DNA of 64,000 nt from an uncultured Actinomycetota bacterium (GTDB lineage Bacteria > Actinomycetota > Coriobacteriia > Anaerosomatales > JAGXFU01): NCBI GenBank assembly GCA_963790405.1, contig CAWBOJ010000006.1:466579-530578 (forward strand), read 5' to 3'. The translations under genes and the position numbers were made by a program. Numbering within the stretch: position 1 is the stretch's first letter; each line of letters begins with the position of its first letter. Below are positions 6,999-30,298 of this stretch, piece by piece. The notes below the pieces were generated by a model, which made no database searches, was not told the DNA's origin, and saw nothing but the letters and a program-made list of their open reading frames with translations.

Positions 6999-7168
6999 TC
7001 AGAGACGTCATCACGGCTGATTGAGCGCCGTCGGGCCTCGTTCGCACCTTGAAAAGGGGGCGGGCGAGGCCCGGTTTGCGTGCTGGGCAACAGCGCGCCT
7101 CGGCGCCGTTCGTGGTAACATACCTTCGGCTTTCACCCCCTCGCAACTCGCACGAAAGGAACGTCCCC

Positions 7169-9254: not shown

Positions 9255-9316
9255 GGTTCTGTGCGGTGGCGACGCTCGTCGCTGGGCCGAGTGGCCTTCG
9301 CGGAAGGGACACCAAG

Positions 9317-10839: not shown

Positions 10840-10892
10840 CGGCGGCGCCGCACGAAGTGGCCGCGCTACGACGAATCGAGCGAAGGACGCAC

Positions 10893-12412
10893 ATGAAGCG
10901 GATCATCATCATCGGTGGCGGTGCGGCGGGTCTGGGCGCTGCGTACAAGGTAGCCGCGGGCAGCCGAAGCGGGTCACGACGTCGAGTTCGTGCTCGTCGA
11001 GAAGGACTCTCGGCTCGGCGGCAAGATCACGAGCGAGACGGTCTCGCGATGAGTGGGGCGGCGCAGACGGCGCCGAGTTCATGATCGACGGCGGCCCGGA
11101 CTGCTTCCTCACGAGCAAGCCTGCCGTGCATCGCATCGCCAAGCTCAGCGGGCATCTTCGATGACGAGCTTCCCAGCGATGAGTCCCGCAAGAAGACGCT
11201 GATCCTGTCGCGGGGCGGGCTCTACGAGATGCCCGACGGCGTGATGATGTTCGCGCCCACGAAGTTCGTGCCGTTCGCGACGACGGGCCTGTTCTCGTGG
11301 CCCGGCAAGATCCGCATGGGCATGGACCTGTTCGTGCCCAAGAAGCAGGTCCCCGAAGGGGAGCTCAACGACGAGACTCTCGAGGACTTCATCGTGCGCC
11401 GCATGGGTCGCGAGTGCCTCGATCGCCTCGCGGAGCCGCTCGTCGGCGGCGTGCATGCGTCTGATCCCAACGCAGATGTCGCTCGCGGCGACGTTCCCGA
11501 ACCTGCTCGAGATGGAGCAGAAGTACGGTCAGCATGGTAAGAGGCTTCCTCGCCGCACGCAAGAAGGTCGAAGAGATGAAGAAGAAGTATCCGCTGAAGC
11601 CGGGCGACAAGCCCAGGACGTTCTTCACGTCGTTCACCGGTGGCATGCAGGAACTCACCGACACGATGGCTGATGCCGCGGGACGCGACGAGCATCCGCA
11701 CCGGCTCCGCCGTGACCGAGTCGATCACGCGTGACGGCGACGGCTGGAGCGTGCGCTCTCGCAGACGGATCGACGCGTCGACGGCGATGCGCTCGATCGT
11801 TGCGACCGAGTCGTGGGCTGCCGAGCCGCTCATGCGCGGCAGTCGACGACGCAGATCGCCGATGCGCTGGCAGAGATACCCGGCAGCTCCTCGGCGACCG
11901 TGTCGATGGGTTTCCGCGAAGATGAGATCGGCATCGACATGAACGCGTTCGGGGTGCTGTGCCCGCAAGTCGAGGAGCGCGCGCTTCTTGGCGGCGACGT
12001 ACTCGTCGACCAAGTGGCCGGGGCGTGCGCCCGAGGGCAAGGTGCTCATGCGCGGTTTCGTGGGCGGTCCGCAGAACCAGACGATCATGGAGAAGAGCGA
12101 CGACGAGCTTGTCGAGATCGTGCTGCGCGAGATGCGCGAGATCCTCGGCATCAAGGGTGAGCCGCTGTTTGCCACGCATCTACCGGTGGACCTCGGGATG
12201 CCGCAGTACACGATGGGCCACCTGGGTCGCGTCGAGCTCATCGAGTCAGCGCTGCGCCGAGACTCCCGGGTCTGGCGCTGGCGGGCGGCTCGTACACAGG
12301 CGTGGGTATTCCGAACTGCATCGAGAGCGGTGAGCGTGCGGTCTCGAAGGTGCTCGGCGAGTGGGATATCGAGCTTGCCGAGGACACGGTCGAGGAGAAG
12401 CGCCACCACTAG
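10893..12412 (+). pseudogene. hemY: HemY-type protoporphyrinogen/coproporphyrinogen III oxidase, copy 2 (tandem paralogue), many frameshifts
   Basis: ATG 10893 starts MKRIIIIGGGAAGLGAAYKV. Homology is collinear with copy 1 across frames (ORFs 10836-11084, 11229-11540, 11534-11734, 11640-11942, 11813-12160, 11988-12419). The corrected tail GVGIPNCIESGERAVSKVLGEWDIELAEDTVEEKRHH ends at TAG 12410-12412. Confidence 0.8.
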
Positions 12413-12461
12413 CGCGTGATCGCTCCGCCGCCGACAGGGGCGTCCGTGCTCAGACATACGC

Positions 12462-12486
12462 GAAGGGCCGCTCACGGCGGCCCTTC
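12462..12486. terminator. Bidirectional hairpin between convergent hemY copy 2 and the IMPase-like gene
   Basis: Perfect 10-bp stem GAAGGGCCGC / GCGGCCCTTC with a 5-nt loop (tcacg). It is nested inside a 16-bp outer inverted repeat (12425-12440 / 12506-12521). Confidence 0.55.
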
Positions 12487-12526
12487 TGCGTAACTGCGCG
12501 CGGAACCCCTGTCGGCGGCGGCGCAC

Positions 12527-13422
12527 TCACGCGTCCAGAATGACCGTCGCCATCTCCGCGTGCAGCCGCGGGTTCGCGGCGATGATGCCCTTCGAGGCCG
12601 GCGTCCAGCGGCTCGCCGTCGATGCCAGTGACCTCGGCTCCGGACTCGCGCAGGATGACCACTCCCGCCGCGGTGTCCCAGGGTTGCAGGCCGAACTCCC
12701 AGAAACCGTCGGCACGTCCGGACGCGACGTGGCAGCAGTCGATCGCTGCCGAGCCGTCGCGTCGCATTCCGTGTACGGGCGCTCGAAGGAATCGGGCGAG
12801 TACGTCGAGCTGTCGGTCGAGCGTGCTCGGCGCGATCGTAGGGGAAGCCCGTACATGAGCGAATCGCGTCAAGACCGATCGACGCGATCCGCACGTGATT
12901 CGATGCGCCATTTCGGAAGCGCGCCCGAACCCGTGGCCAGCCGAGAAGAGCTCCTCGGCAGGGATGTTGTAGACGGCGCCGGCGACCGGGTCTCCGTCGC
13001 GCAGAAGCGCCACCGAGACCGAATAGCACGGGAATCCGTGGACGAACGAGGTGGTGCCGTCGAGCGGGTCGATCGAGCCAGACCTCGTCGATCATCGAGC
13101 GGCGCCATGCGTGACTCCGGTGAGTTCGTGACCTCGTCCTCTTCGATCACGACGCGCGCGTCGGGATCACGTGCCAGGATCTCGTGTCACGACCGCGACG
13201 CCGGCAGCGATGTCGGTGTCGGTGACCATGTCGGTCGCGCGGCCTTTGAGCGGATATCGCCGTGTCTCGGCCGCGCTGTGCAACGAGCAGTCCTGCTGTG
13301 CGGACGGCCCGCTCCGCAGTCTCGAGGGCGTCAATCAGTGCGCGTTCGGGAGCAATCTCATCGGGGTCGTCCGGCCGAGTCTCGCTCATGCGTTCTCGCA
13401 ATCGTCGTGTTCGGGAATCCAT
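12527..13422 (-). pseudogene. Inositol monophosphatase family protein (SuhB-like), frameshifted
   Basis: Minus-strand fragments 12527-12856, 12450-13013, 12869-13150 and 13147-13422. IMPase motifs are recoverable across frames: IDPLDGTTSFVHGFPCYS (around 13030-13085) and WDTAAGVVILRESGAEVTGIDGEPLD. The C-terminus reads GIIAANPRLHAEMATVILDA. Confidence 0.7.
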
Positions 13423-13479
13423 AGAGTAAGCTCAGTTTCGAGTGTACCCGTCCCTGTCCTGCGACCCATGGGAGTTCAG

Positions 13480-14422
13480 ATGTTCCACGAAGGATTCGAC
13501 GCCAGCCTCACACCCGAGATGGCCGAGGAGTTGCGCGAGCGAGCGAATGCGTCCCGTGGTTCGGTCCTGACTGCCACGAGCGTCGCCGGATCGGGTCATC
13601 CCGGCGGGTCGATGTCGTCGATGGAGCTCTACACCGTGCTGCTACTCGTGCGCCCGACTCCGACCAGTCGAGCCCCGCTGGTCGGATCGTGACCGCATCG
13701 TCGTCAGCCACGGTCATACATCGCCGGGTGTGTACGCGGCGCTTGCCTCGGCGGGCTTCTTGCCGTGCGAGGAGTTCGAGGCTCACTTCCGACAGGCGGG
13801 AAGCCTGTTCGAGGGCCACGTCGAGCGTGCGGTGCCCGGTGTTGAGTGGTCGACGCGGCAACCTGGGTCAGGGGCTGTCAGCCGGGCGTGGGAATGGCGC
13901 TCGGGGCACGAATGACGGGCGGTCGGTGGCACACGTACGTCGCTGATGAGCGATGGCGAGCAACACAAGGGGCAGGTCGCGGAGGCGCGTCGGCTCGCGG
14001 CTAAGGAGGGTCTGACCGACCTGACGGTGCTCGTCGATCTGCAACGGCATCCAGATATCGGGTCGCACAGTCGACGTCATGCCCGTTCGCGTGGCCGAGG
14101 ACTTCGCTGCCGACGGGTGGCGTGTGATCGAGGTCGACGGGCACGACGTCGAGGCCATGTACGCGGCGCTTGCTCGATGCGAGCTGCGGATACCGCGTGG
14201 CCCGTCTGCATCGTCGCGCACACGGTGATCGGCAAGGGCGTGTCGTTCATGGAGGGCGACCCTGAATTCCACGGGCGAGGGCTGACCGACGAGGAGTACG
14301 CGACGCGCGATGGCGGAACTGGGTCTGGAGCCTCACGACTGGCAGGCTGCCTCGCGCGCGTCGCGCCGAGCCGGTCACGTGTCGACGAGCTTGAGTTTCG
14401 CACGCCGGTTCCTCTCGTGTGA
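13480..14422 (+). pseudogene. Transketolase, N-terminal (TPP-binding) subunit, frameshifted
   Basis: ATG 13480 follows GGAG. Motifs: SGHPGGSMSSMELYTVL, DRIVVSHGHTSPGVYAAL, GNLGQGLSAG, GKGVSFMEGDPEFHG. Homology jumps between ORFs 13171-13692, 13730-13915, 13689-13946 and 13946-14422. The end is coupled to the next gene by GTGA. Confidence 0.75.
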
Positions 14423-15428
14423 CTCGGGCGAGCTCGCGAACCTACGATCCGCGAGAACACGACAGACAATCGTTCCGCCTGGGGTACCGCGCTGGTCGGA
14501 TCTCGCGCGGTCGAACCCCGATACTACCGATCGCCGTGCTCGACTGCGATCTTGGCCGTCTCGGTCAAGACCGATCGGGTTCGCCAAGGCCCGTCCAGAC
14601 GGATTCGTGCAGTGCGGGGTGGGAGAGCACAACGCCGCGACCGTCGGCGGTGCGCTGTCTACCACGGCAGTCCTCACGTTCTGGGCGGACTTCGGCGTGT
14701 TCGGATGCGACGAGGTCTACAACCAGCAGCGACTCAACGACATCAACGGAGCGGCGCTCAAGGCTCGCGCTGACGCACTGCGGCATCGACGTGGGCGAGG
14801 ACGGCAAGACCCACCAGTGTCTGGACTACGTCGGAGCGTTTCGCGACTTCTTCGGGTGGAAGGTGATCGTCCCTGCGGATCCCAACCAGACGGATCGTGC
14901 CGTCAGGGCCATGCCGCGCATGCAGGGCAACGTCTGCATCGCGATGGGTCGCAGCAAGCTGCCCGCGATCCTTGCGACACGACGGCGCGCCCGTCGTTCG
15001 CCGAGGGACTACGAGTTCGAGTACGGCCGCATCGACTGGGTGCGCGAAGGCGCTGACGCGACGCTGCTGGTCATGGGAACGCCCGCCGGTGAGGCGGTAG
15101 CGCGGCCGCCGACGCGCTTGTCAGCCGATGGGTACTGCGGTCGCAGTAGGCGTCGTGTCCGGCCCACTCGACCTCGACGAAGAGCGCGATGCGCGTGCGC
15201 CGCCGGCGTCTCTGATCGTGACCGTCGAGGACCACAACGTCCGCACGGGGCTCGGGGCATCGGTGGCCGAGTGGCTGGCGCTGGCGGCGATGGCGATGCC
15301 GTTCGAGCGCATCGGAATCGGAGGCGTATCAGCCGAGCGGAGCATCGGCGATCTCGCGGCACGTACCGGTCTCGACGCAGCAGGGAATAGCCGCGACGCT
15401 GCGAGGGATTCTCGGCGGTGAGGGGTAG
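14419..15428 (+). pseudogene. Transketolase, C-terminal (pyrimidine-binding) subunit, frameshifted
   Basis: GTG 14419 overlaps the upstream TGA. Motifs: GVGEHNAATVGGAL, THCGIDVGEDGKTHQCLDYVGAFR, KVIVPADPNQT. Several frame changes occur (ORFs 14419-15390, 14310-15056, 15128-15421). The corrected tail GLDAAGIAATLRGILGGEG ends at TAG 15426-15428. Confidence 0.75.
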
Positions 15429-15518
15429 ACGCGGTTCACCGCCCGGGCACGAGGCGTTCACACCATCTTCACGCACGACGGGCACTCTCATAAGGCACGA
15501 CGAGAGGAAGGCTGCCGG

Positions 15519-16211
15519 ATGAAGCACACGATCCTGGTCGTCGACGACAACGAGAAGATCGTCGAGGTGCTCAAGGCCTACCTCGAAGGCCGAGGGCTAT
15601 CGAAGTGCTGACCGCAGTTGATGGCGAGGACGGCCATGGCGCGCGCCGAGGAACGTCCGCCCTGATCTAGCGCTTCTCGACATCATGCTGCCGGGTATCG
15701 ACGGGATCGAACTCACGAAGCGGTTCCAGCGCCTGTGGGACATGCCGGTGATCCTGGTGACTGCACGTACCGACGAGATCGACCGTCTGATCGGACTTGA
15801 GGTCGGTGCGGACGACTACATCTCCAAGCCGTTCAGCCCTCGCGAGGTGGTAGCTCGGGTGAAGGCCGTGTTGCGCCGGGTCAAGAGTGCGACGGACGAG
15901 ACAGCCGAGACGATTCGCATCGACGGGTTGGTGATCGACGCCATGAGACGGTCGGTGGAGGTCGGATGGCGAGCAGGTGGAGCTTACCCGCACCGAGTTC
16001 GACATCCTGACGACGATGGCGGCACATCCGGGCCGAGTCTACAGCCGGCTACATCTGCTGGAGCTTGTGTCGGGCGACGCGTTTGAAGGCTACGAGCGCA
16101 CGATCGATGCACACGTGAAGAATCTGCGGCGCAAACTCGGGCGACGATCCCAAGTCCCCGCGGTTCATCCGGACCGTCTTCGGGGTTGGCTACAAGATCG
16201 AGCCTTCATGA
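15519..16211 (+). pseudogene. OmpR-family response regulator, frameshifted
   Basis: ATG 15519 starts MKHTILVVDDNEKIVEVLKAYLEG. The receiver domain continues in ORF 15685-16086 ([28 protein letters not shown]). The winged helix is in ORF 15977-16675 ([23 protein letters not shown]). The corrected tail RTVFGVGYKIEPS ends at TGA 16209-16211. Confidence 0.8.
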
Positions 16212-17337
16212 GGCGTCGCGCGACACTCGCGTGGCAGGTGTTCCTGTCGATTCTGGTGGTAGCACTCGTCTCGGTGCTCACTACCGGCCTTATCGCCCGG
16301 TACGCGCTCTCCGGCCAGTTCGCCGACTACGTGGGCGGGATGGGGACCGGCATGGGCGGAGGCCGCGGGATGGGTCGCGCGATGCTCGGCACGGCGGAAC
16401 AAGCGTTCCTCGGCGGGGTCGACAGGGCGATCATGTTGTCCGCACTTGCCGCGATCGTTATCGCGGCAATCGGTGCCCTGCTGCTTGCCCGGTATCTCGC
16501 CAGGCCGCTCCATACGCTCACTTCGGGCGCACGTCAGTTCGCCGGAGGAGACTGGAGCACCGAGTGCAGCTCGATGGACCCGGCGAGGTCGTTGATCTGG
16601 CGGAGGCCTTCAACGACATGGCGGATTCTCTGTCTGAGGCCGAAACGTTGCGTCGCCGGCTGGTTGCGGATGTAGCTCACGAGCTGAGAACCCCGATCGC
16701 GTCGTTGCGCGCGCAGACCGAGGCGATTGCCGAGGGTGTCTTGGAGCTGGACGACGAACGTGCGCGGTCACTCGTGGAGGATGCTACGCAGCTGTCCGTG
16801 CTCGTGAACGATTTGCAGGAACTCTCGGTGGCCGAGGCAGGCAAACTGCGCTACGACATGACGGAGCTCGATCTCGTGGAACTTGCTCGCCGAGAGACTC
16901 AGCGGGCGGAACCTCTACTCGCGGACGACGTACGAATCTCGGTGCAAGGACGCGCCGAACCCGTCAGCGCAGATGAGATGCGACTCGGTCAGGTGGTCAG
17001 GAACCTCATCTCGAATGCCGGAAGACACACAGAGCACGGAGAGATCTCGATTGTGGTATCGGATTCGAGCACAGATGGAGGTCCGGTTGTGCGATTCGAG
17101 GTCCGCGATACCGGCGAAGGTATACCCGCCGACGACCTGCCATACGTCTTCGAGCGGTTCTATCGAGCTGATACCAGCCGTACGGCCGGTACCGGTGGTG
17201 CCGGGATCGGACTAGCGATAGCTCGTCGAATCATCGAGGATCACGGAGGTACGGTGTTCGCTTCGAGCGAACCGGGCGTGCTGACAGTTGTGGGGTTCGA
17301 GTTGCCGCCTGCTGCGGGGTCGGCAACTCGAACCTAG
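16208..17337 (+). pseudogene. Sensor histidine kinase (2 TM, HAMP, HisKA, HATPase_c), one frameshift near 16560
   Basis: ATG 16208 overlaps the RR stop (ATGA). TM helices are in ORF 15977-16675. The H-box VADVAHELRTPIASL and ATPase boxes (RNLISNAGRHT, RDTGEGIPADDLPYVFERFYRAD, GGAGIGLAIARRIIEDHGG) are in ORF 16186-17337. Confidence 0.85.
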
Positions 17338-18661
17338 CCGGCAGCAAGTTCCGGTACTGCCGAACTGTCGCAGCCGGTTCCTTCGAGCAGCAACATCTTC
17401 TCCTCGATCGGAAGTGCCTCACGTTCCTGGTCTCTGTGGTCGTTTGAGGTAGCTAGCGTCTCTCGCATCATGACCATCAGCAGGTAGCGGCCCTTCTCGG
17501 TGAGCACGAGTTCGTCAGGCGTGTCGCTTGCGACTCCGCCGGCCGCCTTCATGAAGGCGATCTCCGCCCACAGACCGCGCTCGACCGGCACACCGAAGTC
17601 GCGTTCGAAGCGACGCTTGTCGAGCTTGAGGCCGAACAGATCCGTCACGAAGCGATAGCGCATCAGGCTTTTCGGCTATAGGGGTTGCCTCGCTTGGCCA
17701 CGGACATGTGACCAGCTGAGATTCTCTTCGAATAGTCGTGGAGAGAGAAGGTGTTCGCGTAGATTCTGCCGTCGAGGAACGACAGTGCTCCCGATCCTAT
17801 GCCGACGTACTGTTCGTAGTCGACGATGTATTCATCGATCATTGAGTCGATGTCGCGCGAGTAGGTCCACGCCGAGGTCGGGGTGAAGACATCGGCGAGC
17901 GCTTCCGTCGGCGATAACGGTAGTAGCGTGTTTCGCGCTGATAATCGATCCTGCCGACCGCGCTGGCCAGCTCACGTCTCATCTTTGGCGAAGCCATCAG
18001 GGGGTAGAACGTGGTCTGATTGGCTCCTGATGCCTTGAGAAGCTCGATGTCGTGCAGAAGCATTTCCTCTGTCTGAGACGGGAAGTTGAAGATCATGTCG
18101 ACGTTGAGCGAATGGAACTTGCCGGCGACTCCCCAGATCTTGTCGAACAGGTCGTCGCCCGTTCCGTACTTGTCGAGTCGATCCATCTGTCGCAGCAGTC
18201 CATCGTCGAAACTCTGGACGCCCACGGACAACCGGTGAACTCGATCGAGCGAGCGCATCGACGAGTTCGTCGTTGAGATGGTTTGGGCTCGTCTCGCACG
18301 AGACCTCAGTGATACCGAACAATGAGGTGGCAAGATCGATCGTCTCGGTGAGCTCGTCGAGAAGGATGGTCGGTGTTCCGCCGCCGATGTAGAGCGACGG
18401 GAAGTCGTATCCCATGTCCGCGACCATACGCATTTCTTCACGTAGGTGCTTGAAGTAGGAACGCGCGTGGTCTTCTCTGTACAAGAAGCGGTTGAACGAG
18501 CAGTACAGGCACAGTCGCTCGCAGAAGGGGACATGAGCGTAGAGAACGTAGCCCGTGTCAGGTTGGGGAGAGGGTAGACTCTCGAGTTCACATGGATCTT
18601 GCGCGAGGTAGGTCTTGTTGAGTATGCGCAGGGCAGCGGTAATCGCACGCTCGGAGAGCAT
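17334..18661 (-). pseudogene. HemN-like oxygen-independent coproporphyrinogen III oxidase family radical SAM protein, frameshifted
   Basis: Minus-strand fragments 17972-18661, 17839-18648 and 17334-17663. The radical SAM cluster motif is HVPFCERLCLYCSF. Other matches: LYIGGGTPT, RLSVGVQSFDDGLLRQMDR and a HemN_C-like tail (FERDFGVPVERGLW). Confidence 0.75.
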
Positions 18662-18903
18662 CAGTGTCCCTTCGTTCGATATGAATGCTCACGTACGCCG
18701 GTTTGTGGCGAGGCTCGGCGAGCACTCTATCGATCGCGACCCCTGACCCCCGTCGGCGCTAGCCGACGATCCCCCTTGCGGTCTGCCGACATCTCGCCGG
18801 CAGGAGTCCCGTCAAAACCTCTCCACGCCTTGAATTCTACGAACAAGGGTGCCTTCCTGCCTCGTGATGCCGCGATAAGAGGAGAATCGCGAGTTGGAAA
18901 GCG

Positions 18904-18936
18904 ACGAAGCCCCGGGACGTAGCCCCGGGGCTTCGT
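18904..18936 (-). terminator. Strong hairpin downstream of the hydrogenase operon
   Basis: Perfect 13-bp stem ACGAAGCCCCGGG / CCCGGGGCTTCGT with a 7-nt loop, about 30 nt past the cytochrome b stop (18965). Confidence 0.6.
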
Positions 18937-18964
18937 ACGTTGTGATGCTTACGACGGTGGTCTT

Positions 18965-19637
18965 CTAGTGACCGCCGCTTGCGACCTTGCCGGTCTTGGG
19001 GTCGAAGTGGATACCCTCTTCTTCCTCCCAGGCGAAGATCAGCTTGGAGGGCGCGAAGCCTTCGACGTTGGCCAGGTAGGCGTGGATAGCCGTGAAGACG
19101 AGGAAGATCCACATCATGAAGTAGTGGAGGATCCTCATGTTCATCGGCCCGCCGATCCAGGCTGTCGAGAAGATGGACCAGTCCATCGTCGGCGCGTAGA
19201 TGGCAGAAGCCTGTGTAGGCCATGAAGTAGGTGAGCGGAATGGTCGCGATGTATGCGATCTTCTGGAGCACACCGTACTTCCCGCCGAGCGGGTGATCCT
19301 TCTTGAAGAACAGGTAGTACTTGATCCATGGGACCAACTGGTGACGGTTGGCCGTCTGCGGCAGCCAGTTCTTGATGTCCGTGTCCTGCTCACGTGTACC
19401 GAGCATGACCGCGCTCTTGACGAAGAACGAAGCCAGGATGCGGAACGTGAGGTTGATGATCAGGACATACATGAAGAAGAAGTGCATGCCACGAGCCACA
19501 CCCATGAATCCGGCAAAGAACGGATAGTGGATGTAGAAGCCCGAGAAGGCCAAGGACACCATCGAGATCAGGTTGATCCAATGGGTGAGGACGAACACCA
19601 TCGGGTGCGCCTCACGGTAATGAGCCGGGTGCGACAT
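18965..19637 (-). pseudogene. Ni/Fe-hydrogenase b-type cytochrome subunit, one frameshift near 19205
   Basis: ATG at 19637 lies 2 nt after the large-subunit TAG. It starts MSHPAHYREAHPMVFVLTHWINLISMVSLAFSGFYIHYP and has 4 TM-like segments. The C-terminal half is in ORF 18965-19393 (IYAPTMDWSIF...RILHYFMMWIFLVFTAIHAYL). Confidence 0.8.
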
Positions 19638-19639
19638 GA

Positions 19640-21308
19640 CTACTTCACCCCCATTGGCTTGGTGTGCACGTACGAATCCGCACCGGTCTTGACGTCCATC
19701 ACGTGGACGGCGCAACCGATTCAAGGATCGAAGCTGCGTGCAACACGCACGACGTTCATCGGGCGGTCGACTTCGATGACCGGTGTTCCGATGAGAGCTT
19801 CCTCCATCGGCCCACGCACTCCGTCTTTGTCACGGGGTGCGATGTCCCACGTGGTAGGAGCAACGACCTGGTAGCCTGCAATCTTGCCGCCTTCGACATT
19901 CATGTAGTGGGCGACAGAACCACGCGGGGCTTCCCAGATGCCGACACCCTTGCCGTCGACCACATCGTGGGGCTCGAAGAACTTGACGTCTCCACCCTTG
20001 ATGTACTCCGATGAGCTCGACCATCCACTCCAGCGACAAGTCTGCGACGTATGCAGCCTCGAGGTTGCGGGCGGCTACGCGGCCGAGCAGTGAAACGAGA
20101 ACCTCAGGATGACCAGCGGCACCCAGCGCCTCAAGCGTGGAGTCGATGAGATCCACGACCGGCTTCACGCCGCTAACGTAGGCAACGACCATACGAGCAA
20201 GCGGACCGACTTCGGTTGCCTCGCCCGTGCCGCTACCGGCGGTAGTCTGATAGCGGACCGACTTGCCCCACGAGTACTTGTCGTCGGTGTTGTAGTCCGT
20301 CCACAGCGCCTTGGTGCTGCCTTCCTGGGGGTTGAGGCCGCCATTGGCGTCCTCGTACCAGGAGTGGTCGACCCACTCGATAACGTTCTCCGGAAATGCT
20401 TCTTCGACCGTGAGCCCCGAAGTGATAACGCCGTTCGGTAGGTAGCGGTCTGTCGGAGCGAAACTCGGGGCATCGAACACGCCCCATGAGAGGAACTTGC
20501 CCGTACCAGCCACCGAACCCTAGTGCGCCCAGGTAGTACGGAGCGATTGCGAGCGTATCGGGGATGAGTGCTGTCTTGACGAAGTCCGCGACCTTGGTGA
20601 AACGGTAGAGGACATCATCGAGCTTCTGCTCTGTCGGTACGAATGTGGTGCCACCGTTCACGGATGTCATGAAGTGCGGGAACTTGCCACCCATGATGCC
20701 GATTACGGCAGCCGCCTCGCCCTGCATTTCGAGTGCTTCGAGGTAGTGCGCGACCGCGATCAGGTGCAACTCGGCCGGCATGTCCTGTGCGTACTCAGGG
20801 TGACCGAACCAACCGTTGCTGAAGATCGACAGGTTGCCGCTTTCCACGAATGCGCCCAGACGCTTGGCCACGGCACCGAAGTCCGCCATGCGGGTGCCCG
20901 CCGCCTGCGGCCAGCGCGTACGTATCGGCGATGTCCGCCTCAAGCGCCTTGACCGGATCGACGTAGTCCAGGGCAGCAAGTGTGTAGAACCACAGAATGT
21001 GGCTGTGCAGGAACTGGGCCGCCTCGATGATGTTTCGGACGAGCCGAGCACCCTCGGGAATCTGGATACCCATCGCAGCCTCGGCCGACATTGTCGACGC
21101 GTGGCCGTGAGAGATCGGACAGACTCCGCAGATTCGCTGGGACACGTAGAACGCGTCCTGCGGGCGACGGTCCTTGAGCACGGTCTCCATACCGCGATAC
21201 AGCGTGCCTGAGATCCAGGCATCTGTCACAACGCCGTCTTCGACTTCGACTTCGACTCTGAGGTGACCCTCGATACGAGTCAGACGGATCGACTGCTATG
21301 CGTGCCAC
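19640..21308 (-). pseudogene. [NiFe]-hydrogenase large subunit with in-frame TGA (candidate selenocysteine, [NiFeSe] type), also carrying about 4 frameshifts as assembled
   Basis: GTG 21308 overlaps the small-subunit TAG. The corrected N-terminus is VARIAVDP-LTRIEGHLRVEVEVEDGVVTDAW (extra t near 21284). N-terminal Ni motif: SQRICGVCPISHGHAS. Fragments: 20795-21229, 20233-21222, 19830-20513, 19721-19963 (EAPRGSVAHY, VAPTTWDIAPRD). The C-terminus reads RSFDP-TGA(19721-19723)-IGCAVHVMDVKTGADSYVHTKPMGVK-TAG(19640-19642), all in one frame. Confidence 0.85.
19685..19717 (-). promoter_or_regulatory. Candidate bacterial SECIS hairpin downstream of the TGA
   Basis: The mRNA after UGA reads AUC GGUU GCGC CGUCCA CGUGA UGGACG UCAA GACC. 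It can form a lower stem GGUU/GACC and a 6-bp upper stem CGUCCA/UGGACG with a GU-containing pentaloop 18-22 nt after the UGA. Confidence 0.45.
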
Positions 21309-22492
21309 TATTTACCGCCTCCCTTCTTGCGATCGTGTTCCTTGGCGTCCTCGTAGGGAGCGCCTCCATCCATGCGTCCAGCGGCCTTCATGCCGACCCC
21401 GTGAATCGCAAGGGCGCCTACGGCTACGGCACCTACGGCGCCTGCAACGACCGTCGGCTGGGTGACCCAATCACCGATACGAATGTCGCGGTGACGATTC
21501 AGGAAAGGAGCTCCGACGTCGACCCAGTTGCCGCCGGCCTTGAGCGGATCGGCTGATCCGCATCCGATGCACGGAGCACCAGATTCGACGCACCAGCTTG
21601 CGCGGCCGTTCCAGCGAACGATCGGGCAGTTGGTGAAGGTCTGTGGGCCTTTGCACCCAACCGCATACAGACAGTAGCCCTTGGCCTCTTCTTCGCTGCC
21701 GAATTCATACACGAATTCGCCATTCTCAAAGTGGCCGCGACGCGGACAGTTGTCGTGAATCGACTGGCCGAAGATGGCTTTCGGACGGTTGAAGTCGTCC
21801 AGATCAAGAATCGAGAGGTCCTCAAGCGCTCCGAGGAACAGCACATCAATCACCATAGCGACGACCCACTCCGGATTCACCGGGCAGGTCGGGAGGTTGA
21901 CGACTGGAGTCTTGATATCGTGTTGGTTGCAGAAATCGAGAACACCGATGCCCTCTGCAGGGTTCGGATGTGCTGCCACCCAGCCACCATCCACGGCGCA
22001 AGAACCTACAGCGACGATGGCCGCAGCGTTCTCAAACAGTTCAGGCAGCTCTTCGGTCTGTGGCTTCCCGGCGACGCGGAGTGCGTTGCCGTCGAAACCG
22101 GTCATGATGGTGCCCTCGAAAATGAGGACGTACTGCCCTGCGTACTTCTCGACAACGGCAGCCTTGGCCGCCTCGGCGTCTTCGCCCTGGGCCATCATGA
22201 TTGTCTCGAAGTAGTTGATCGAGAGCAGGTCCAGAACGATTGTGGCCACGTCGGGCGTGTCGACCTGTGCGATAGACTCCGTACAACCGGAGCATGAGCC
22301 ACCGTTGATCCACAGAGCCGGAGCTTGTGGCTGCAATACTGAACCCTCGACCGCCGCAGCGATCTTCGGCACGTATGATTCGGCGAGTCCGAGAAGAGCA
22401 GCGGTCGCACCGCACCACTTGAGGAAATCCCGACGCGTTACGCCTCGAGCTGCAAGCATTGAGTAGAACGCGCCGTGGTCCTCGTGAGCCAT
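21308..22492 (-). CDS. [NiFe]-hydrogenase small subunit (Tat signal, C-terminal membrane anchor)
   Basis: Intact. AAGGAGG precedes ATG 22492. Twin-arginine signal TRRDFLKWCGATAALLGLA. Fe-S ligand motifs: GGSCSGCTES, GSCAVDGG, HDNCPRRGHF, GCKGPQTFTNCP, WCVESGAPCIGC. A hydrophobic helix VVAGAVGAVAVGALAI sits near the end. Confidence 0.9.
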   Translation of the reverse strand: MAHEDHGAFYSMLAARGVTRRDFLKWCGATAALLGLAESYVPKIAAAVEGSVLQPQAPALWINGGSCSGCTESIAQVDTPDVATIVLDLLSINYFETIMMAQGEDAEAAKAAVVEKYAGQYVLIFEGTIMTGFDGNALRVAGKPQTEELPELFENAAAIVAVGSCAVDGGWVAAHPNPAEGIGVLDFCNQHDIKTPVVNLPTCPVNPEWVVAMVIDVLFLGALEDLSILDLDDFNRPKAIFGQSIHDNCPRRGHFENGEFVYEFGSEEEAKGYCLYAVGCKGPQTFTNCPIVRWNGRASWCVESGAPCIGCGSADPLKAGGNWVDVGAPFLNRHRDIRIGDWVTQPTVVAGAVGAVAVGALAIHGVGMKAAGRMDGGAPYEDAKEHDRKKGGGK

Positions 22493-23263
22493 GCCATACA
22501 CCTCCTTGATAGGGAACGTTGTCTTACAGTTCTCGTTGGCTAGCGACCCGCGAGTGCTCGACGGATTCGAGCATGCGGGCATCAGACAATGTCAGCCGTG
22601 GCCGACCCCCTTTCCGAGAGCATGGGGACAACACTCAGCCTAGACAGGCTTTCGCTGCGGTAGCACCGAATAGTGACTCGCGCGAGCTTGGAGTGACGCG
22701 TGGGGTGTGCCGGAGAAGTCACTCTCGTCGGACATGCCGACTCAACGGCCCTCGGCCATGAACGGATAGGTGCGGAAGATCTCATGATGTGTGAAGCGCA
22801 CCGTCCAACAGCACGCTCTGACCGGAGAGAATGTTCCCCGATCAATTGCGGCCCGGCAGCCGCATTGTTATGACGCACTTGCTCGTGACCCCCAAACGTT
22901 TGCACGATGCTCGAGTGTGTGTCACTGAGTGGCCATTGTCCCAGGCGTGACCACTCACGGCACTATTCTACATATGTGCCCAGGGTTCCCGCTATGAAAT
23001 CACTACTCGTTGGGAATGCTAGGGGATACCGATTCCCTTCGCCTCGGAGGTGGGCGTGATGTCCGGTGACCAGATAGACGATCGCAGCTCCTTCAGAGAT
23101 GCTCCGACTGTGCGGGTCAGGATCTGGTCGATTCGTATGAGAACGAGGAAAATGGTGGGTCCTGACAGGGAAAACGGCTTCCATGGGCAGGGATGACGCT
23201 CCAACAGGCGAATCCATCTGACGAGGCGCTGAACCTGCCTGGCGGCGCCAAGGACGGGGGATT

Positions 23264-23527
23264 ATGGTCTCCGGATCGCCCAATGGTCTGGTTCTCGATG
23301 TGCGGGGTTTCTCGCCGGGACTCAGACGACCGATTGTGTTCACACTCGTGGACAAGTTGCTGGAACTCGACGCTGATGACAGCCTGGTTGTCATTTGCGA
23401 TCACGAGCCGGCCGGTCTCGGCTACCAACTTGACCTGCGCAAGGAGTCCAAGGGTAAGTTCGAGTACTTCTACGATCAACGTATGGACGGCGCGTGGGTT
23501 GCGCTCATCCGGCGCAAGCCGATGTAG
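23264..23527 (+). CDS. DUF2249-like small protein
   Basis: 87-aa ORF. LDVRGFSPGLRRPIVFTLVDKLLELDADDSLVVICDHEPAGLGYQL...GKFEYFYDQRMDGAWVALIRRK matches, from memory, the DUF2249 pattern (LDVR..P..RHP.I...L..G....L.NDHDP.PL.YQ). Confidence 0.55.
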   Translation: MVSGSPNGLVLDVRGFSPGLRRPIVFTLVDKLLELDADDSLVVICDHEPAGLGYQLDLRKESKGKFEYFYDQRMDGAWVALIRRKPM

Positions 23528-23532
23528 CGGCT

Positions 23533-24234
23533 CTATCCTTCACACAGCCGGGGGAGCGATGCCGCCAATTCACTCAGGCTTCCGCGGTACGTCGCAGGCG
23601 CTTGTGAGTCCGCCCCAACGTAGTATGTCGACATGCCCACGTCCGCCGCGGCCATGTCGAGCAATCTGTCATCCCCGACCATCATGCATTCGGCTGGATC
23701 GACCTTGAGCATCTCCGCTGTTTGTCGGAAGTAGTCCGGCAGCGGCTTTGTTGCACGCATGTTTTCGTAGCTCGTGATTGCGTCGAACTGGCCGGGCTCG
23801 AAGTCGGCCCATGTGATGCGGTGTTCGATAGCGCGCAATGGGAAGATCGGGTTGGTGGCGACGGCGACACGCAAACCACATGCGCGTGCGGCCCTCAGCG
23901 CATCATGAGCGCCTTCGGAGGGGCCGATCCCCGCCCGGAGCGTGGGGAAGACTTCCTCGTAGAACCGGTCGAAGACGGGCCAACACACTTCGAGATCCAT
24001 GCCAGAGTCCTTCTCGAATGTGCTCGAGAACGCTGTCTGGTTCGTAAGTCCCGGATGGGGGCGCATCATCGCGTTGGTCGCGTCGAAAATCGCCTTCATG
24101 ACCACCTTGTGGGCGTCTGTAGAGTCGACTATCTCCTCGATGGCCGTGGAAAGGGCAGCAAAATACCTTGGCAGGAAGCTCTCGATATCGATGTCAAGGA
24201 GTGTGCCGTCGAGGTCGAAAAGGACTGCTTGCAT
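23533..24234 (-). CDS. HAD-superfamily hydrolase
   Basis: 233-aa ORF with motif I at the N-terminus (MQAVLFDLDGTLLD), motif II region (VAVATNP) and motif IV (MVGDDRLLD). Confidence 0.85.
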   Translation of the reverse strand: MQAVLFDLDGTLLDIDIESFLPRYFAALSTAIEEIVDSTDAHKVVMKAIFDATNAMMRPHPGLTNQTAFSSTFEKDSGMDLEVCWPVFDRFYEEVFPTLRAGIGPSEGAHDALRAARACGLRVAVATNPIFPLRAIEHRITWADFEPGQFDAITSYENMRATKPLPDYFRQTAEMLKVDPAECMMVGDDRLLDMAAADVGMSTYYVGADSQAPATYRGSLSELAASLPRLCEG

Positions 24235-24434
24235 TTGTCGGAAGCCCCTTTGGGAACATTGGATTCAGGAGTCCTGCACATGTTAGCACTGGGATCACGT
24301 GGAAGGGTGTTGACCCCAGCATACCATGGGGGGTATCTTCAACATCGATTGGCGGGATACCCCCGTGGGCATAGGATTTGCTCGTTTGCGAGTTCGAGAA
24401 GTCATTCACAAAGGTGCCGGAAAGGAAGATAGCC

Positions 24435-27400
24435 ATGGCAGCCGTGAGCGAACGCACCGAGGTGCAGCTCAAGAGAATCTTTGGCGATAGAGTCAAGACC
24501 GACAGAGTCGAGCGAAAGATGTACTCGTTCGACATCGGGGCAATGCCGAAGCTGGTGAAGCCATTCGTGCCTGCAGGCATTGCAGGAGCCGTGGTTCGGC
24601 CCAAGAGCGAGGACGAGATTGTCGAACTGATGCGTCTCGCCAGCTCAGAGGGTCTGAAAATCGTCCCGCGTGGTTGGGCGACATCGGGCTACGGCGGCGT
24701 ACTGCCGCCAGACGGAGCGGTCGTCGCGGACATGTCCGGCATGCACGAGATCCTCGCTGTCGATCAAAACGAGCTGACCGTACGGGTTCAGGCCTCAGCC
24801 ATCTGGGAGGAGATTGAGCGCCAGCTGGCCAAAGATGGTCTTGGGCTGCGTCTCTATCCTTCTTCTTCGCCGAGTTCCGGCGCAGCAGGATGGCTTGCAC
24901 AAGGCGGCTCGGGCTTCGGCTCCTACGAGTATGGCTTGTTCAAGGACAACGTCGTGTCGGCTCGTATCGTGCTTCCCACGGGCGATGTCAAGGAGTTTTC
25001 GGGCGACGAGCTTCAGAATCTTGTCGCCGACGCCGAGGGTATCACTGGCATCATCACTGAACTGACCGTGAGGATCCGCCATGCCGAGCCCGAGGTTCAT
25101 CGCGCGATCGCCTTCGACAGCGCTCGTGCGCTCGGGGCCAGCCTACAAGCCATCTCGACGCAGCACCTTCCCGTCTGGTCGATCACGTTCCTGAATCCTG
25201 AGTCCATGCGCCTCAAGAAGGAACTGCCGCACAGGCACGGTCATCCCTGGGAGATGGAGCACGAGCACATCGAGCCCAATCTGCCCGAAGCGTTCATCGC
25301 CGTGATTGCGTACCCGGAGTCTCGACGGGGTGCTATCGACACCGCTCTCGATGCCATCGTGACGGCAAATGGCGGCACGGACCTTGGTCCCGAGGCCGCG
25401 GAGCATGAGTGGGAACTGCGATTCTCGCCCATGAAACTCAAGCGCATCGGCCCTTCGCTCGTTCCGACCGAGGTAGTCGTGCCTCTGTCGGAGATGGCGG
25501 CCGTTCTTGAGGAGATCGACCGGAAGATCAAGCAACCCTTCATTCTCGAGGGCATGCATGCCAAAGGGGACAAGGTCGTTCTCCTCGGCTTCATACCGCA
25601 CGACGAGCGTTCCTTCACCTTCAACATGGCCTTCGCCCTGTCGCTGTCGGTAATCAAGATCGCCAAGGCGCATCATGGTTCTGCCTATTCAACCGGTCTG
25701 TATTTCCGCCGAGAAGCCGAGTCGGTGCTGGGCACAGAGAGGAAGCGTGCCCTGAGCGCCTACAAGGCGAAGGTGGATCCGAAGGGTTTCATGAACCCCG
25801 GCAAGGTCATCGGTGGTGGCGGGGTTATCGATCTACTGATGGGTTCTGCCGCTGCGATGGAATCTCTCATCCGACCCGTGGCCAACATGGCCACCCCCCC
25901 GGACGCAATGCGAGATCTCACCAAGGAGGTTCGCGGCATTCCGGGCGACGTGGCGTACATGGCGTACGCATGCGCTCGCTGCGGCTACTGCGTTCCCACG
26001 TGCGAGCAGTACACAGGACGGGGCTGGGAGTCACAATCGCCCCGCGGCAAGTACGCCTACCTTCGTGAGGTCATGGAGGGACGCGAGAAGTGGAACCGCA
26101 AAGCGATCGACACCCAGCTCGTCTGCACCACGTGCGAAGTCTGCAACGCGCGTTGCCAGCTGCAACTGCCGGTGGAGCACAACTGGATGACGATGCGCGG
26201 CAAGCTCGTACACGAGGAGAAGCGGGGTACGTTCCCGCCCTTTGAGATGATGGCGGCTTCTTTGCGCGGAGAGCGAGACATCTGGGCCGGCAAGGCCGAG
26301 AATCGCGCCAACTGGGTGCCCGAGGACATCAAGGACAAGCTCTCGGATGACAAGGGCGGATGGAACAAACAGGCTGACATCCTCTACTTCGCCGGTTGCA
26401 CGGCCAGTTTCGTCGAGGCAGACATCGCGGAGGCATCCGTACGGCTGCTGACCGATGCCGGCTACGATATCGGCTACATGGGTACGGACGAAGCCTGTTG
26501 TGGCATACCGATGAAGGTCGCCGGGAAGTGGGACCTGTTTGCCGAGATCTTCGAGCACAACGTGTCCGAAGCGCGCAAACGCGGTGCGAAGACGATCGTC
26601 ACTTCATGCCCTGCGTGTGGCCTCGTGTGGAAGGAGCTCTACGCGAACCTTGCTGCCGAGCGCGGTGAGGAATACGACTTCGAGGTGAAGCACTACTCGG
26701 AGCTTGTCGCGGAAGCGATTGCAGAGGGCAAGATCGAGCTCAAGGACAACCCGTTCGAAGGTGAAAGGCTCACGTTCCACGACTCGTGTCACATGGGTCG
26801 AGCCCAAGGCAACTACGAGCCGCCACGCGACATGATCAAGGCCATCCCGGGCGTGGACTACGTCGAGATGGAGCACAACCGCGAGGAAGGCTACTGCTGC
26901 GGATCGGTGCTCACGCTGGTAGGCGAGATCGAGGTCGCGCCGGTGCTGGGCAAGGTGCGCTTGCAGGAAGCCGTTGACGCCGGGGCGAACAGGGTCGTCG
27001 CGCTGTGTCCGTGCTGTCAAGTGCAGCTCCGCGACAGTGTGGACAAGAACGACATGCCGCTGCAGATCGACGACCTTGCACGTGTCGTCGCTGAAGCAGC
27101 TGGCTACGAAATCCCTGAGACGACAGCGTTCTCCCTGTACATGTGGGGCTACTTCGACAAGTTCATCATCCTCCTGGAGCCTGCGAACATGGCGAAGTTC
27201 ATGACGCGGATCTTCCCGCAGATGATGGATGCGATGCCCGCTGGCATGAAGCCCATGATGAAGTCGATGAAGCACGTCCCCGGTGGTCTTGCCATGATGG
27301 AGAAGATGATGCCGCTGATGTTCCCGATGATGATCGACGGTATCATGGCCAAGGTCATGCCGGACATGGTCCGTGAAGTCGAGGACTACATTGGCGAGAT

Positions 27401-27533
27401 GCCGCCGGATATGGCCGATCTTATTCCGGGTCTGCTCCCCCAGACACTGGACTCGCTCATGCCGACGTACCTGCCACAGCTCATCCCGCACGTGACGCCG
27501 CTCATGATCGATTACATTCGCGAGAAGATGTAG
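24435..27533 (+). CDS. Fusion oxidoreductase: FAD-binding GlcD-like dehydrogenase + 2x[4Fe-4S] + two CCG (HdrD/GlcF-like) domains + Met-rich C-terminal tail
   Basis: Intact ORF (24378-27533). ATG 24435 follows GGAAAGGAAG. It has an FAD_binding_4-type N-terminal half. Ferredoxin motifs: CARCGYCVPTCEQY and CTTCEVCNARCQ. CCG motifs: EACCGIPMK and GYCCGSV. The last 130 aa contain 25 Met. Confidence 0.8.
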   Translation: MAAVSERTEVQLKRIFGDRVKTDRVERKMYSFDIGAMPKLVKPFVPAGIAGAVVRPKSEDEIVELMRLASSEGLKIVPRGWATSGYGGVLPPDGAVVADMSGMHEILAVDQNELTVRVQASAIWEEIERQLAKDGLGLRLYPSSSPSSGAAGWLAQGGSGFGSYEYGLFKDNVVSARIVLPTGDVKEFSGDELQNLVADAEGITGIITELTVRIRHAEPEVHRAIAFDSARALGASLQAISTQHLPVWSITFLNPESMRLKKELPHRHGHPWEMEHEHIEPNLPEAFIAVIAYPESRRGAIDTALDAIVTANGGTDLGPEAAEHEWELRFSPMKLKRIGPSLVPTEVVVPLSEMAAVLEEIDRKIKQPFILEGMHAKGDKVVLLGFIPHDERSFTFNMAFALSLSVIKIAKAHHGSAYSTGLYFRREAESVLGTERKRALSAYKAKVDPKGFMNPGKVIGGGGVIDLLMGSAAAMESLIRPVANMATPPDAMRDLTKEVRGIPGDVAYMAYACARCGYCVPTCEQYTGRGWESQSPRGKYAYLREVMEGREKWNRKAIDTQLVCTTCEVCNARCQLQLPVEHNWMTMRGKLVHEEKRGTFPPFEMMAASLRGERDIWAGKAENRANWVPEDIKDKLSDDKGGWNKQADILYFAGCTASFVEADIAEASVRLLTDAGYDIGYMGTDEACCGIPMKVAGKWDLFAEIFEHNVSEARKRGAKTIVTSCPACGLVWKELYANLAAERGEEYDFEVKHYSELVAEAIAEGKIELKDNPFEGERLTFHDSCHMGRAQGNYEPPRDMIKAIPGVDYVEMEHNREEGYCCGSVLTLVGEIEVAPVLGKVRLQEAVDAGANRVVALCPCCQVQLRDSVDKNDMPLQIDDLARVVAEAAGYEIPETTAFSLYMWGYFDKFIILLEPANMAKFMTRIFPQMMDAMPAGMKPMMKSMKHVPGGLAMMEKMMPLMFPMMIDGIMAKVMPDMVREVEDYIGEMPPDMADLIPGLLPQTLDSLMPTYLPQLIPHVTPLMIDYIREKM

Positions 27534-27651
27534 CGCTGCAAGAAGATGTGCCCTTCGGGGTACGCACGTGTGAACGTCGGGGCGGCACCTTTGGGGTGTC
27601 GCCCCTGCATTGTGGGCGACGAACGGTCCTGGGATTGCAGAACGCGCGTCG

Positions 27652-27671
27652 ATTGTGGCTTAAGTCACAAT
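27652..27671. promoter_or_regulatory. CRP/FNR-type palindromic operator candidate upstream of the Crp-family gene
   Basis: ATTGTGgCTTAAGtCACAAT is a 20-bp near-perfect palindrome. Its core TGTGG-N6-TCACA differs from the CRP consensus TGTGA-N6-TCACA by one base. It ends 24 nt before ATG 27695. Confidence 0.5.
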
Positions 27672-27694
27672 TGCGAAAGGCCGATATCAGCACC

Positions 27695-28396
27695 ATGAAA
27701 CAGTCACAGAGCACACGCGATCAGTCTCTTGCCAAGTTGCGCGCGATTCCAATGTTCTCGGAGATGTCGGCCGAGGATCTTGACACCTTCGCGGACATGG
27801 TTCAGCTCAAGCGCTATCCGAAGGGCGCGTTCATCGTCACCCAGAACGAAGTGGGCTCGTCGATGTATCTGCTCGTCTCGGGAAGAGTCAAAGTCTCGCT
27901 TGCCTCCCCGGATGGCAAGGAGCTGGCTCTCAGCTACCTTGAGGCGCCCGCGCATTTCGGCGAGATGAGCCTGGTTGACGCTGAACCGCGTTCGGCCGAT
28001 GTCATCGCGGTCACCGAAGTCGAGTTGTTCAGTCTCGACGCGAAGGATCTTTCCACGGCGATCCAGATCAACCCGAGACTTGCGTTGTCGTTGATAGCGA
28101 CCCTGTCGCGTCGCCTCAGGCATACGATAGCGCGGCTCGAGGATATGGCGTTTCACGACGCCACCCATCGCGTCATGAGAGTTCTGCTCAACGTGGCTAC
28201 GGCCAGCTATGAGACGCGTGGCGTGCCTGTGATCCAGGGTCTGACGCACTATGACATCGCGACTCTCGCGGGCACGTCAAGAGAGACCGCGAGCAGGATC
28301 ATCTCGAACCTGGCCAAAGAGGGCGCGTTGGCGACCAAGGGTCGCAAGATCGTCGTCGACCTCATCAAGTTGCGGGAGCGGCTTGAAGGCAACTGA
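27695..28396 (+). CDS. Crp/Fnr-family transcriptional regulator
   Basis: cNMP-binding fold (FGEMSLVDAEPRSADVIAV) and C-terminal HTH (THYDIATLAGTSRETASRIISNLAKEG). ATG 27695 was chosen within ORF 27548-28396. Confidence 0.85.
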   Translation: MKQSQSTRDQSLAKLRAIPMFSEMSAEDLDTFADMVQLKRYPKGAFIVTQNEVGSSMYLLVSGRVKVSLASPDGKELALSYLEAPAHFGEMSLVDAEPRSADVIAVTEVELFSLDAKDLSTAIQINPRLALSLIATLSRRLRHTIARLEDMAFHDATHRVMRVLLNVATASYETRGVPVIQGLTHYDIATLAGTSRETASRIISNLAKEGALATKGRKIVVDLIKLRERLEGN

Positions 28397-28491
28397 TTCT
28401 CGCCGCATGGAGTTCCCTGCACGTTTTGCGGAGTCGGCCCGGGGGGACATTACCGATGTCATGTCCGTCATGGCCCGACCTCGGAGGCACG

Positions 28492-28719
28492 ATGAAGGAA
28501 CTCACTGTTGAGGAGCTCAAGCAATACAACGGCCGGGACGGCAGTCCGGCATACGTCGCGTACAAGGGCGTCGTCTACGACGTGACCGATAGCGCGATGT
28601 GGGGAGAGGGCGACCACGAAGCGATGCACTTCGCCGGGGCCGATCTGACGGAAGAGCATGAGGACGCCCCCCACGACGTGTATGTGACGGACTTCCCTGA
28701 AGTAGGAAGGCTGGTCTGA
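28492..28719 (+). CDS. Cytochrome b5-like heme/steroid-binding domain protein
   Basis: GGAGG precedes ATG 28492. MKELTVEELKQYNGRDGSPAYVAYKGVVYDVTDSAMW...GDHEAMHFAG is typical of the small bacterial b5-like family. Confidence 0.7.
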   Translation: MKELTVEELKQYNGRDGSPAYVAYKGVVYDVTDSAMWGEGDHEAMHFAGADLTEEHEDAPHDVYVTDFPEVGRLV

Positions 28720-28754
28720 CCCCCGAGCGGTCGGTCGCCTTCTCGGCAGTGTGC

Positions 28755-30059: not shown

Positions 30060-30298
30060 AAAGGCTCCTTTTCGCGGTGGGCGGGTCTTTCTCGGCCGCT
30101 GAGTCGAGGCATATACTACCTGGTAGTGAGCGGTCTGTCCCCGACCAGAGGGTCTACGTACTACGCAGTGTGTTTCCTTGAGTCCTGTTGCGGGCATGCC
30201 GATAGACGGGACATTGGATTGTTTGCGCTTGCGACGTTTTGCGATGCTGATGAAATGTGTGCCGGTTGAGTCCGGCTCCAAGAGGAGGTACCCCTCTA

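Follow-up and report, generated by a model that had tools for sequence, protein, structure and literature searches.

A candidate selenocysteine-containing, cytochrome b-linked uptake hydrogenase in an uncultured bacterium of the Coriobacteriia

Introduction

[NiFeSe] hydrogenases are valued for their high H2-production activity and their fast recovery from O2, and to our knowledge the characterised enzymes come only from Desulfovibrionales and methanogens. In the Vhu and Fru enzymes of Methanococcales, which are cytoplasmic, cofactor-coupled archaeal enzymes, selenocysteine (Sec) replaces the same C-terminal cysteine (Cys) ligand that is at issue here; archaeal selenocysteine insertion sequence (SECIS) elements are located outside the coding sequence, in the untranslated parts of the mRNA, and VhuU is made as a peptide of its own. 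The SECIS of E. coli fdhF is a hairpin inside the open reading frame (ORF), immediately 3' of the UGA, with an upper stem-loop starting 11 nt after the UGA and a G-U in the apical loop. In the HydDB paper, [NiFeSe] variants are given for no groups other than 1a, 3a and 3c, and group 1i is named 'Coriobacteria-type (putative)'. The enzymes of two Anaerosomatales isolates, Anaerosoma tenue and Parvivirga hydrogeniphila, have been assigned to group 1i, selenocysteine not being mentioned (PMC9686372). Here we analyse a 64-kb stretch of DNA from an uncultured Actinomycetota bacterium (contig CAWBOJ010000006.1, class Coriobacteriia, order Anaerosomatales), referred to below as the window, in which the large-subunit gene of a hydrogenase operon carries an in-frame UGA codon at the position of a nickel ligand.

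Results

The UGA codon and its reading frame

The minus strand of the window contains a three-gene hydrogenase operon, composed of the genes for a small subunit, a large subunit and a b-type cytochrome. The large-subunit gene and the elements at its 3' end are the following.

19640..21308, minus strand: predicted [NiFeSe] hydrogenase large subunit, from end-to-end alignment of the reconstruction with intact homologues
19721..19723, minus strand: probable selenocysteine codon (UGA) for the first residue in the C-terminal motif of Ni ligands, DP-U-IGC-AVH, from alignment and conservation
19643..19720, minus strand: the 26 codons after the putative Sec codon, encoding IGCAVH (second C-terminal Cys ligand and His) and a 20-residue C-terminal extension, from in-frame conservation
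19683..19719, minus strand: candidate SECIS-type bipartite hairpin inside the ORF, from folding, comparison and a covariance model

The minus-strand frame reads ...PMNVVRVARSFDP-TGA(19723-19721)-IGCAVHVMDVKTGADSYVHTKPMGVK-TAG(19642-19640), and the residues before the TGA are RSFDP. The gene begins with a GTG at 21308-21306, overlapping the stop codon of the small-subunit gene by 1 nt, and encodes 554 amino acids once four single extra bases are removed, with 87% identity to the best homologue (P0001). The N-terminal RICGVCP motif (RxCGxC type) is intact, and the C-terminal motif DP-U-IGC-AVH (DPxxxCxxH type) is present. The preliminary description of this DNA, made from its letters and ORFs, had reported the in-frame TGA, exactly 26 sense codons after it and a 2-nt gap to the cytochrome b gene (ATG at 19637-19635), all of which hold. 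It had also placed the TGA at the first Cys of DPCxxCxxH, and our alignment indeed sets the codon against the Sec (written 'X') of PDB 5jsh, the HysA of D. vulgaris, and against the Cys of the Sec-to-Cys variant of that protein (5jsu). The C-terminal 120 residues have D. vulgaris [NiFeSe] HysA as their best match among solved structures (E = 2.5e-29). ORF callers were said to truncate the gene at the TGA; most of the nearest public homologues likewise end at ...SFDP.

The tail encoded after the TGA is conserved in frame in all TGA-bearing relatives and aligns with the C-termini of HysA, HybC and the D. fructosovorans enzymes. The 20-residue extension is of the kind cleaved by a maturation endopeptidase and, by analogy with established [NiFe] maturation, would be removed here as well. 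No homologue of a maturation endopeptidase gene was found anywhere in the 64-kb window. A HycI-type maturation endopeptidase gene directly follows cytochrome b in one close relative (L205, 12452-13021); there is none at that place in the window or in two others (L081 and L204).

Conservation of the UGA codon

Among the 120 nearest protein clusters (59-87% identity, mostly from metagenome-assembled genomes (MAGs) of Coriobacteriia or Anaerosomatales), 115 stop exactly at '...SFDP'; five have DPC[VI]AC[AG]VH instead. Species-representative genomes were scanned for loci picked by protein similarity, not by codon. This yielded 18 loci with TGA followed in frame by [IVML]GC[AG]VHV and about 26 codons (L001-L012, L014-L018 and L059); 17 of them are Coriobacteriia-type at 56-65% identity, and L059 is from an unclassified bacterium. 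The closest contigs (L081, L204 and L205), fetched separately, have the same TGA and in-frame tail, and the large subunit of L081, with 87% amino-acid identity to the window protein, keeps the TGA. At 59 more distant loci, from Eggerthellaceae, Nitrospirota and 'Deltaproteobacteria', the codon is TGC or TGT. Such conservation means that the TGA is not a sequence error, nor a nonsense mutation confined to this copy. Predicted Sec hydrogenases are, by these comparisons, the rule in Coriobacteriia outside Eggerthellaceae, but they are annotated as truncated proteins. A Sec-dependent uptake hydrogenase had been thought unusual for this kind of genome, a view that has to be given up, such enzymes being common in the class.

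The residue two positions after the Sec or Cys also differs, Sec lineages reading U-x-G-C and Cys lineages C-x-A-C, with one exception that reads S. The Gly codon (GGN) of U-x-G-C also forms the 5' side of the lower SECIS stem, so the constraint on this glycine could come from the RNA, the protein or both. Further Sec-type group 1 large subunits occur outside both the Coriobacteriia and the classical HysA clades (L059, L098, L159, L109, L138, L083, L094, L149, L154 and L156). Their tails differ (for example ...EPETNQVLKFKTRNSLF or ...IAPNG...FKVI), and each has a hairpin at the same site.

A hairpin downstream of the UGA codon

The upper stem of the candidate SECIS pairs CGUCCA with UGGACG around a CGUGA loop, is located at 19709-19693 and begins 11 nt after the UGA. 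The lower stem, (C)GGUU/GACC(G), pairs 19719-19714 with 19688-19683 and is weaker. The loop is formed on His-Val codons (CAC GUG), and a stem of 6-7 bp is possible in all Sec sequences. A contiguous stem of at least 6 bp was found at this site in all 111 unique Sec sequences, versus two of 58 unique Cys homologues; the search pattern used to retrieve the metagenome sequences had constrained part of the 5' arm but not the 3' arm. Most Coriobacteriia have a variant, NN-GUUCA[CGUGAU]UGAAC-NN, in which the 3' arm is displaced by one base relative to the codons. RNAalifold, given the codon-aligned TGA plus 54 nt of 19 sequences, predicted nothing useful because of this one-nucleotide displacement between the hairpin variants.

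The two registers were therefore scored separately for covariation. Scored in this way, the upper helix is 98% paired, with compensatory exchanges in the window register (GC/CG at columns 18-28 and CG/UA at 15-31) and in the shifted register (GC/CG at 14-33 and 15-32, UA/GC at 18-29). The observed covariation score was reached by none of 500 shuffles, and when the registers are slid pairing drops to 10-55%. In the outer pairs, covariation comes about by coordinated changes of amino acids (Ala...Pro, Gly...Arg, Gly...Pro and Ala...Arg). The hairpin had been described as bipartite, and both stems do exist as drawn, the upper one strongly and the lower one weakly supported across relatives.

A covariance model was also built, as had been suggested for this site. 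This model, R1, was trained only on shifted-register sequences, the window being left out. Its sole match in the 64 kb is 19679-19723 on the minus strand (39.3 bits, E = 5e-10), the next best hit scoring 11.2 bits; no curated model matched. With this model, held-out Sec loci of the window register reach 30-38 bits, and Cys loci do not exceed 19.9 bits at the homologous site.

Selenocysteine machinery in relatives

Genes for selenocysteine synthesis and insertion occur together with this type of hydrogenase in related genomes. On the 662-kb JGI contig Ga0209164_1000006, genes are arranged as selD-yedF-selA-selB with a tRNA-SeC 5 kb downstream (L203, 7246-16893); another stretch of the same contig (L090) bears a Sec hydrogenase large subunit. 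The P0017 large subunit is 72% identical to that of the window, and its copy in L204 has the gene order of the window. In an Actinomycetes MAG (L017, 3750-11700), selD, tRNA-SeC, selB, selA, the small subunit and the Sec large subunit follow each other in that order, and selD itself contains an in-frame UGA (SKAG-U-AAK). At four more loci (L121, L166, L186 and L195), selD also adjoins the hydrogenase. The SelB of L017 (5243-6880) and its nearest relative are short, about 505-545 aa versus about 635, and do not match the second winged-helix domain PF09106.

Family and phylogenetic placement

Over its full length, the large subunit has its best matches of solved structure among standard periplasmic [NiFe] enzymes, with 416 bits for that of D. 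gigas (PDB 2frv) versus 322 for HysA. With the HysA/HysB family models of NCBIfam (NF045518, NF045520 and NF033181), scores stay below the cut-offs: 421 versus 780 for HysA, 497 versus 600 for NiFeSe_hydrog and 234 versus 470 for the NiFeSe small subunit. In neighbour-joining (NJ) trees, a distance method, with 200 bootstraps, the enzymes of Coriobacteriia, whether Sec or Cys, fall into a single clade (200/200), from which the HysA-like Sec clade is separate (200/200), as is a Nitrospirota/delta Cys clade. Orthology with Desulfovibrio HysA is rejected by the PDB scores, the NCBIfam cut-offs and the tree. The likeness to named [NiFeSe] enzymes that had been drawn for this locus holds for the position of the putative Sec at the Ni site. 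The window enzyme is orthologous neither to those of Desulfovibrionales nor to those of Methanococcales.

Inside the Coriobacteriia clade, Cys enzymes from Eggerthella, Adlercreutzia, Rubneribacter and Raoultibacter group with five database Cys proteins (199/200). The Sec sequences of Coriobacteriia are monophyletic in only 106/200 bootstraps. By its place in the tree, the window enzyme is a member of the cytochrome b-linked Coriobacteria-type clade, which would correspond to HydDB group 1i; the link to group 1i is through NJ clustering with the Eggerthellaceae enzymes and the shared operon.

The other operon genes and their surroundings

The remaining two genes of the operon are these.

21308..22492, minus strand: hydrogenase small subunit with Tat signal RRDFLKW and C-terminal membrane anchor, from Pfam Oxidored_q6 and NiFe_hyd_SSU_C and NCBIfam hydA (304 bits)
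18965..19637, minus strand: Ni-hydrogenase b-type cytochrome subunit with one frame change near 19204, from Pfam Ni_hydr_CYTB

The start of the small subunit was placed by its ribosome-binding site (RBS) and ATG. In the alignment, the small subunit (SWCVESGAPCIGC) has a Cys where D. gigas (NWPVQAGHPCIAC) has the Pro that defines the medial [3Fe-4S] cluster, and this Cys predicts a relay made up entirely of [4Fe-4S] clusters, like that of known [NiFeSe] enzymes. The Cys was considered as a Sec-specific marker and rejected, Cys-type relatives carrying it too: W-C-V, not W-P-V, is found at the medial cluster in both Sec and Cys lineages (window 21308-22492 and the small subunits of L001-L092). 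The cytochrome b is 80% and 62% identical to that of L204 in its two frames.

The operon lies in a conserved neighbourhood. Window and L204 share the order TrmA-like, cytochrome b5, Crp, FAD/CCG oxidoreductase, HAD, DUF2249, small subunit, large subunit and cytochrome b and, past cytochrome b, radical SAM, transketolase, IMPase, amino oxidase, ferrochelatase, URO-D and Acs. The window encodes at 24378-27533 a 1052-aa fusion protein with FAD_binding_4, FAD-oxidase_C, Fer4 and two CCG domains and a Met-rich C-terminal tail; its gene is conserved beside the hydrogenase operon in L081, L204 and L205. Heme-synthesis-type genes flank the operon (window 7169-12409 and 17340-18661), encoding URO-D, ferrochelatase, two HemY-like amino oxidases and a radical-SAM enzyme, an arrangement that is conserved in relatives. 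Rnf-type genes for RnfC, RnfD and two small membrane subunits are located at 42671-46900. RnfC is a selenoprotein in some bacteria; that of the window has the N-terminus FRGGVHPP right after the start and no in-frame TGA.

Discussion

The UGA at 19721-19723 is very probably decoded as selenocysteine in a membrane-bound, cytochrome b-linked H2-uptake hydrogenase, under the direction of a SECIS inside the ORF. The candidate reading put forward in the preliminary description is strengthened by a clade-wide TGA, a conserved downstream frame, a covarying hairpin, and sel genes and tRNA-Sec in relatives. In the mechanism that we propose, the Tat-exported small subunit, the large subunit and the cytochrome b would form the membrane-bound uptake enzyme, and reading the UGA as selenocysteine would give a Ni(Cys)3(Sec) active site with the motif DPU-x-G-C-x-x-H. 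Recoding would be directed by the hairpin within the next ~40 nt of the ORF, which SelB carrying Sec-tRNA(Sec) may recognise on the ribosome. Translation would then run on for 26 codons, through the motif with the last Cys and His ligands and through the C-terminal extension, which would be removed after Ni insertion, and electrons from H2 would pass to quinone via the cytochrome b. We infer Sec insertion itself, SelB binding, C-terminal processing and H2-to-quinone flow.

Several observations weigh against this proposal. An incomplete literature search found no experimental selenium incorporation for any member of the clade. Within the 64-kb window, neither selA, selB and selD (tblastn with the L017 proteins) nor tRNA-Sec was found, the sole tRNA being a tRNA-Arg. 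Rfam gave no SECIS or other match, in the window at gathering thresholds and in 19600-19800 at permissive thresholds. For the lower helix, which is paired to 71-76% and shows no clear covariation, comparative support is weak. The window hairpin alone is not statistically remarkable, its folding z-score being -1.3, and a 6-bp stem survives in 50% of synonymous recodings of the peptide, so that the hairpin is partly encoded by the peptide. Together, these last two values suggest that peptide and RNA have co-evolved; because the fold of the window alone is unremarkable, we take the significance of the hairpin from the comparison with relatives. Finally, as written, the large-subunit gene contains four frameshifting insertions, which would make it a pseudogene if they were real.

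In that case, the locus would be the decaying remnant of an ancestrally Sec hydrogenase from which no enzyme is made. The large-subunit frame changes near 21283, 20907, 20508 and 20007, and that of cytochrome b near 19204. Single-base frame changes relative to syntenic orthologues are also frequent elsewhere (in Acs, URO-D, ferrochelatase, the two HemY-like amino oxidases, transketolase, radical SAM and an EF-G-like gene), clustering at 4955-21300 and 37777-39906 with none at 21300-30300. Many more between 7 and 21.3 kb and none from 21.3 to 30 kb is an uneven spread, odd for random error, and favours decay. However, all five resolved lesions, compared with two intact relatives (L081 and L204 for the large subunit), are single inserted bases in non-homopolymer context, in line with the 1-nt insertions noted earlier, and there are no deletions or premature stops. 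The gene fragments are 53-86% identical to orthologues over their whole length, and the EF-G-like gene (37.8-39.9 kb) and the acetyl-CoA synthetase gene are split between frames too. Sequencing or assembly error of the insertion type fits this pattern better than decay, which we consider unlikely. Sequence error is the most likely origin of the four large-subunit insertions, because the fragments stay highly similar to their orthologues, without deletions or premature stops.

The TGA could also be a true stop, the large subunit ending at ...SFDP and the 78 nt downstream being untranslated or encoding a separate small peptide like VhuU of Methanococcus voltae. Public annotation and ORF callers do stop there, and homologues of 520-541 aa are deposited as 'nickel-dependent hydrogenase large subunit'. 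Such a protein would be without two of the four Ni/Fe Cys ligands, however, and the 26 codons past the TGA are in frame in all relatives, with an invariant GC-x-VH. A separate peptide would have neither start codon nor RBS directly after the TGA, and Cys-type relatives are contiguous through the position, all of which makes a stop very improbable. Sequence errors are clearly present in the window, and the TGA might be a substitution for TGC or TGT in an error-rich assembly. Yet the same codon is found in the closest relatives and at the 18 genome loci, and the downstream Gly and the hairpin are states of the Sec lineages, not of the Cys lineages with C-x-A-C and no hairpin. Such an error, disfavoured from the start, can be discounted almost entirely. 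Hardly any credence is due, either, to a reassignment of UGA, for example to tryptophan (Trp). According to a preprint, UGA-to-Trp recoding occurs in 34 Eggerthellaceae genomes (bioRxiv 10.64898/2025.12.01.691617), but the clade of the window is not Eggerthellaceae. UGA is an ordinary stop in five of 18 other well-defined window genes, among them Crp, which aligns with its orthologue through the last residue of that protein; the standard code leaves window ORFs as long as 1052 aa open. Trp, moreover, could not replace Cys or Sec at a metal-ligand position.

Decoding of the UGA as selenocysteine, the reading that we retain, bears on how these enzymes are annotated. Our comparisons support a selenocysteine-containing, cytochrome b-linked uptake hydrogenase, in a large Coriobacteria-type group that is routinely mis-annotated as truncated. 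The deposited clade proteins that we examined end at ...SFDP and are without two metal ligands, so metabolic reconstructions and hydrogenase classifiers work from truncated sequences. In our incomplete search of the literature, no description of Sec in a Coriobacteriia hydrogenase was found. We lean slightly towards a wider proposal, in which most group 1i-like respiratory hydrogenases would be selenoenzymes and form an unrecognised actinobacterial [NiFeSe] lineage distinct from HysA. Sec would be ancestral, with Cys replacement in gut Eggerthellaceae, or have been gained independently, and all the Sec enzymes would be publicly truncated, that of EMTCatB1 included. The locus of EMTCatB1, a biocathode bacterium, has TGA at the Sec codon (L008); on a methane-producing cathode, transcripts of its NiFe hydrogenase were among the 10% most abundant, in a study that does not mention selenium (PMC7943316).

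If the proposal is true, the clade is a third [NiFeSe] lineage, quinone-linked and membrane-bound, from another phylum and with more than 100 sequence clusters. Its members come from subsurface, termite-gut and bioelectrochemical settings, and their H2-dependent growth should depend on selenium supply.

Comparison with known systems

To the Vhu and Fru enzymes of Methanococcales (groups 3c and 3a), by way of the NCBIfam models VhuA and frhA, the window enzyme shows weak homology over its N-terminal ~120 aa only. Like the E. coli fdhF SECIS, the window hairpin is located in the ORF just 3' of the UGA, with an upper stem-loop that starts 11 nt after this codon and a G-U in its apical loop; its sequence is different, and no bulged U was identified in it. 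The HysAB enzymes of Desulfovibrionales (D. vulgaris Hildenborough and Desulfomicrobium baculatum; HydDB group 1a) have their Sec at the Ni-ligand position of the putative Sec of the window, in the same U-x-G-C-A-V-H. Their hairpin, CGUGCA[CGUGC]UGCACG, uses the same His-Val codons in the same register as CGUCCA[CGUGA]UGGACG of the window, from which it differs by a compensatory G-C/C-G swap, and their small subunit, as in the window, has a Cys at the medial-cluster position. Unlike HysAB, the window enzyme comprises a cytochrome b and a small subunit with a membrane anchor, and it is found in Actinomycetota rather than Desulfobacterota. The group 1i enzymes of Eggerthellaceae share with it the clade, the three-gene operon and a similar C-terminal extension (...SPWGVK / ...KPMGVK); they differ in having a Cys (C-T-A-C) and no hairpin. 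The putative Sec clade and the Cys clade of Eggerthellaceae beside it would offer a natural pair for studying Sec/Cys exchange at the Ni site.

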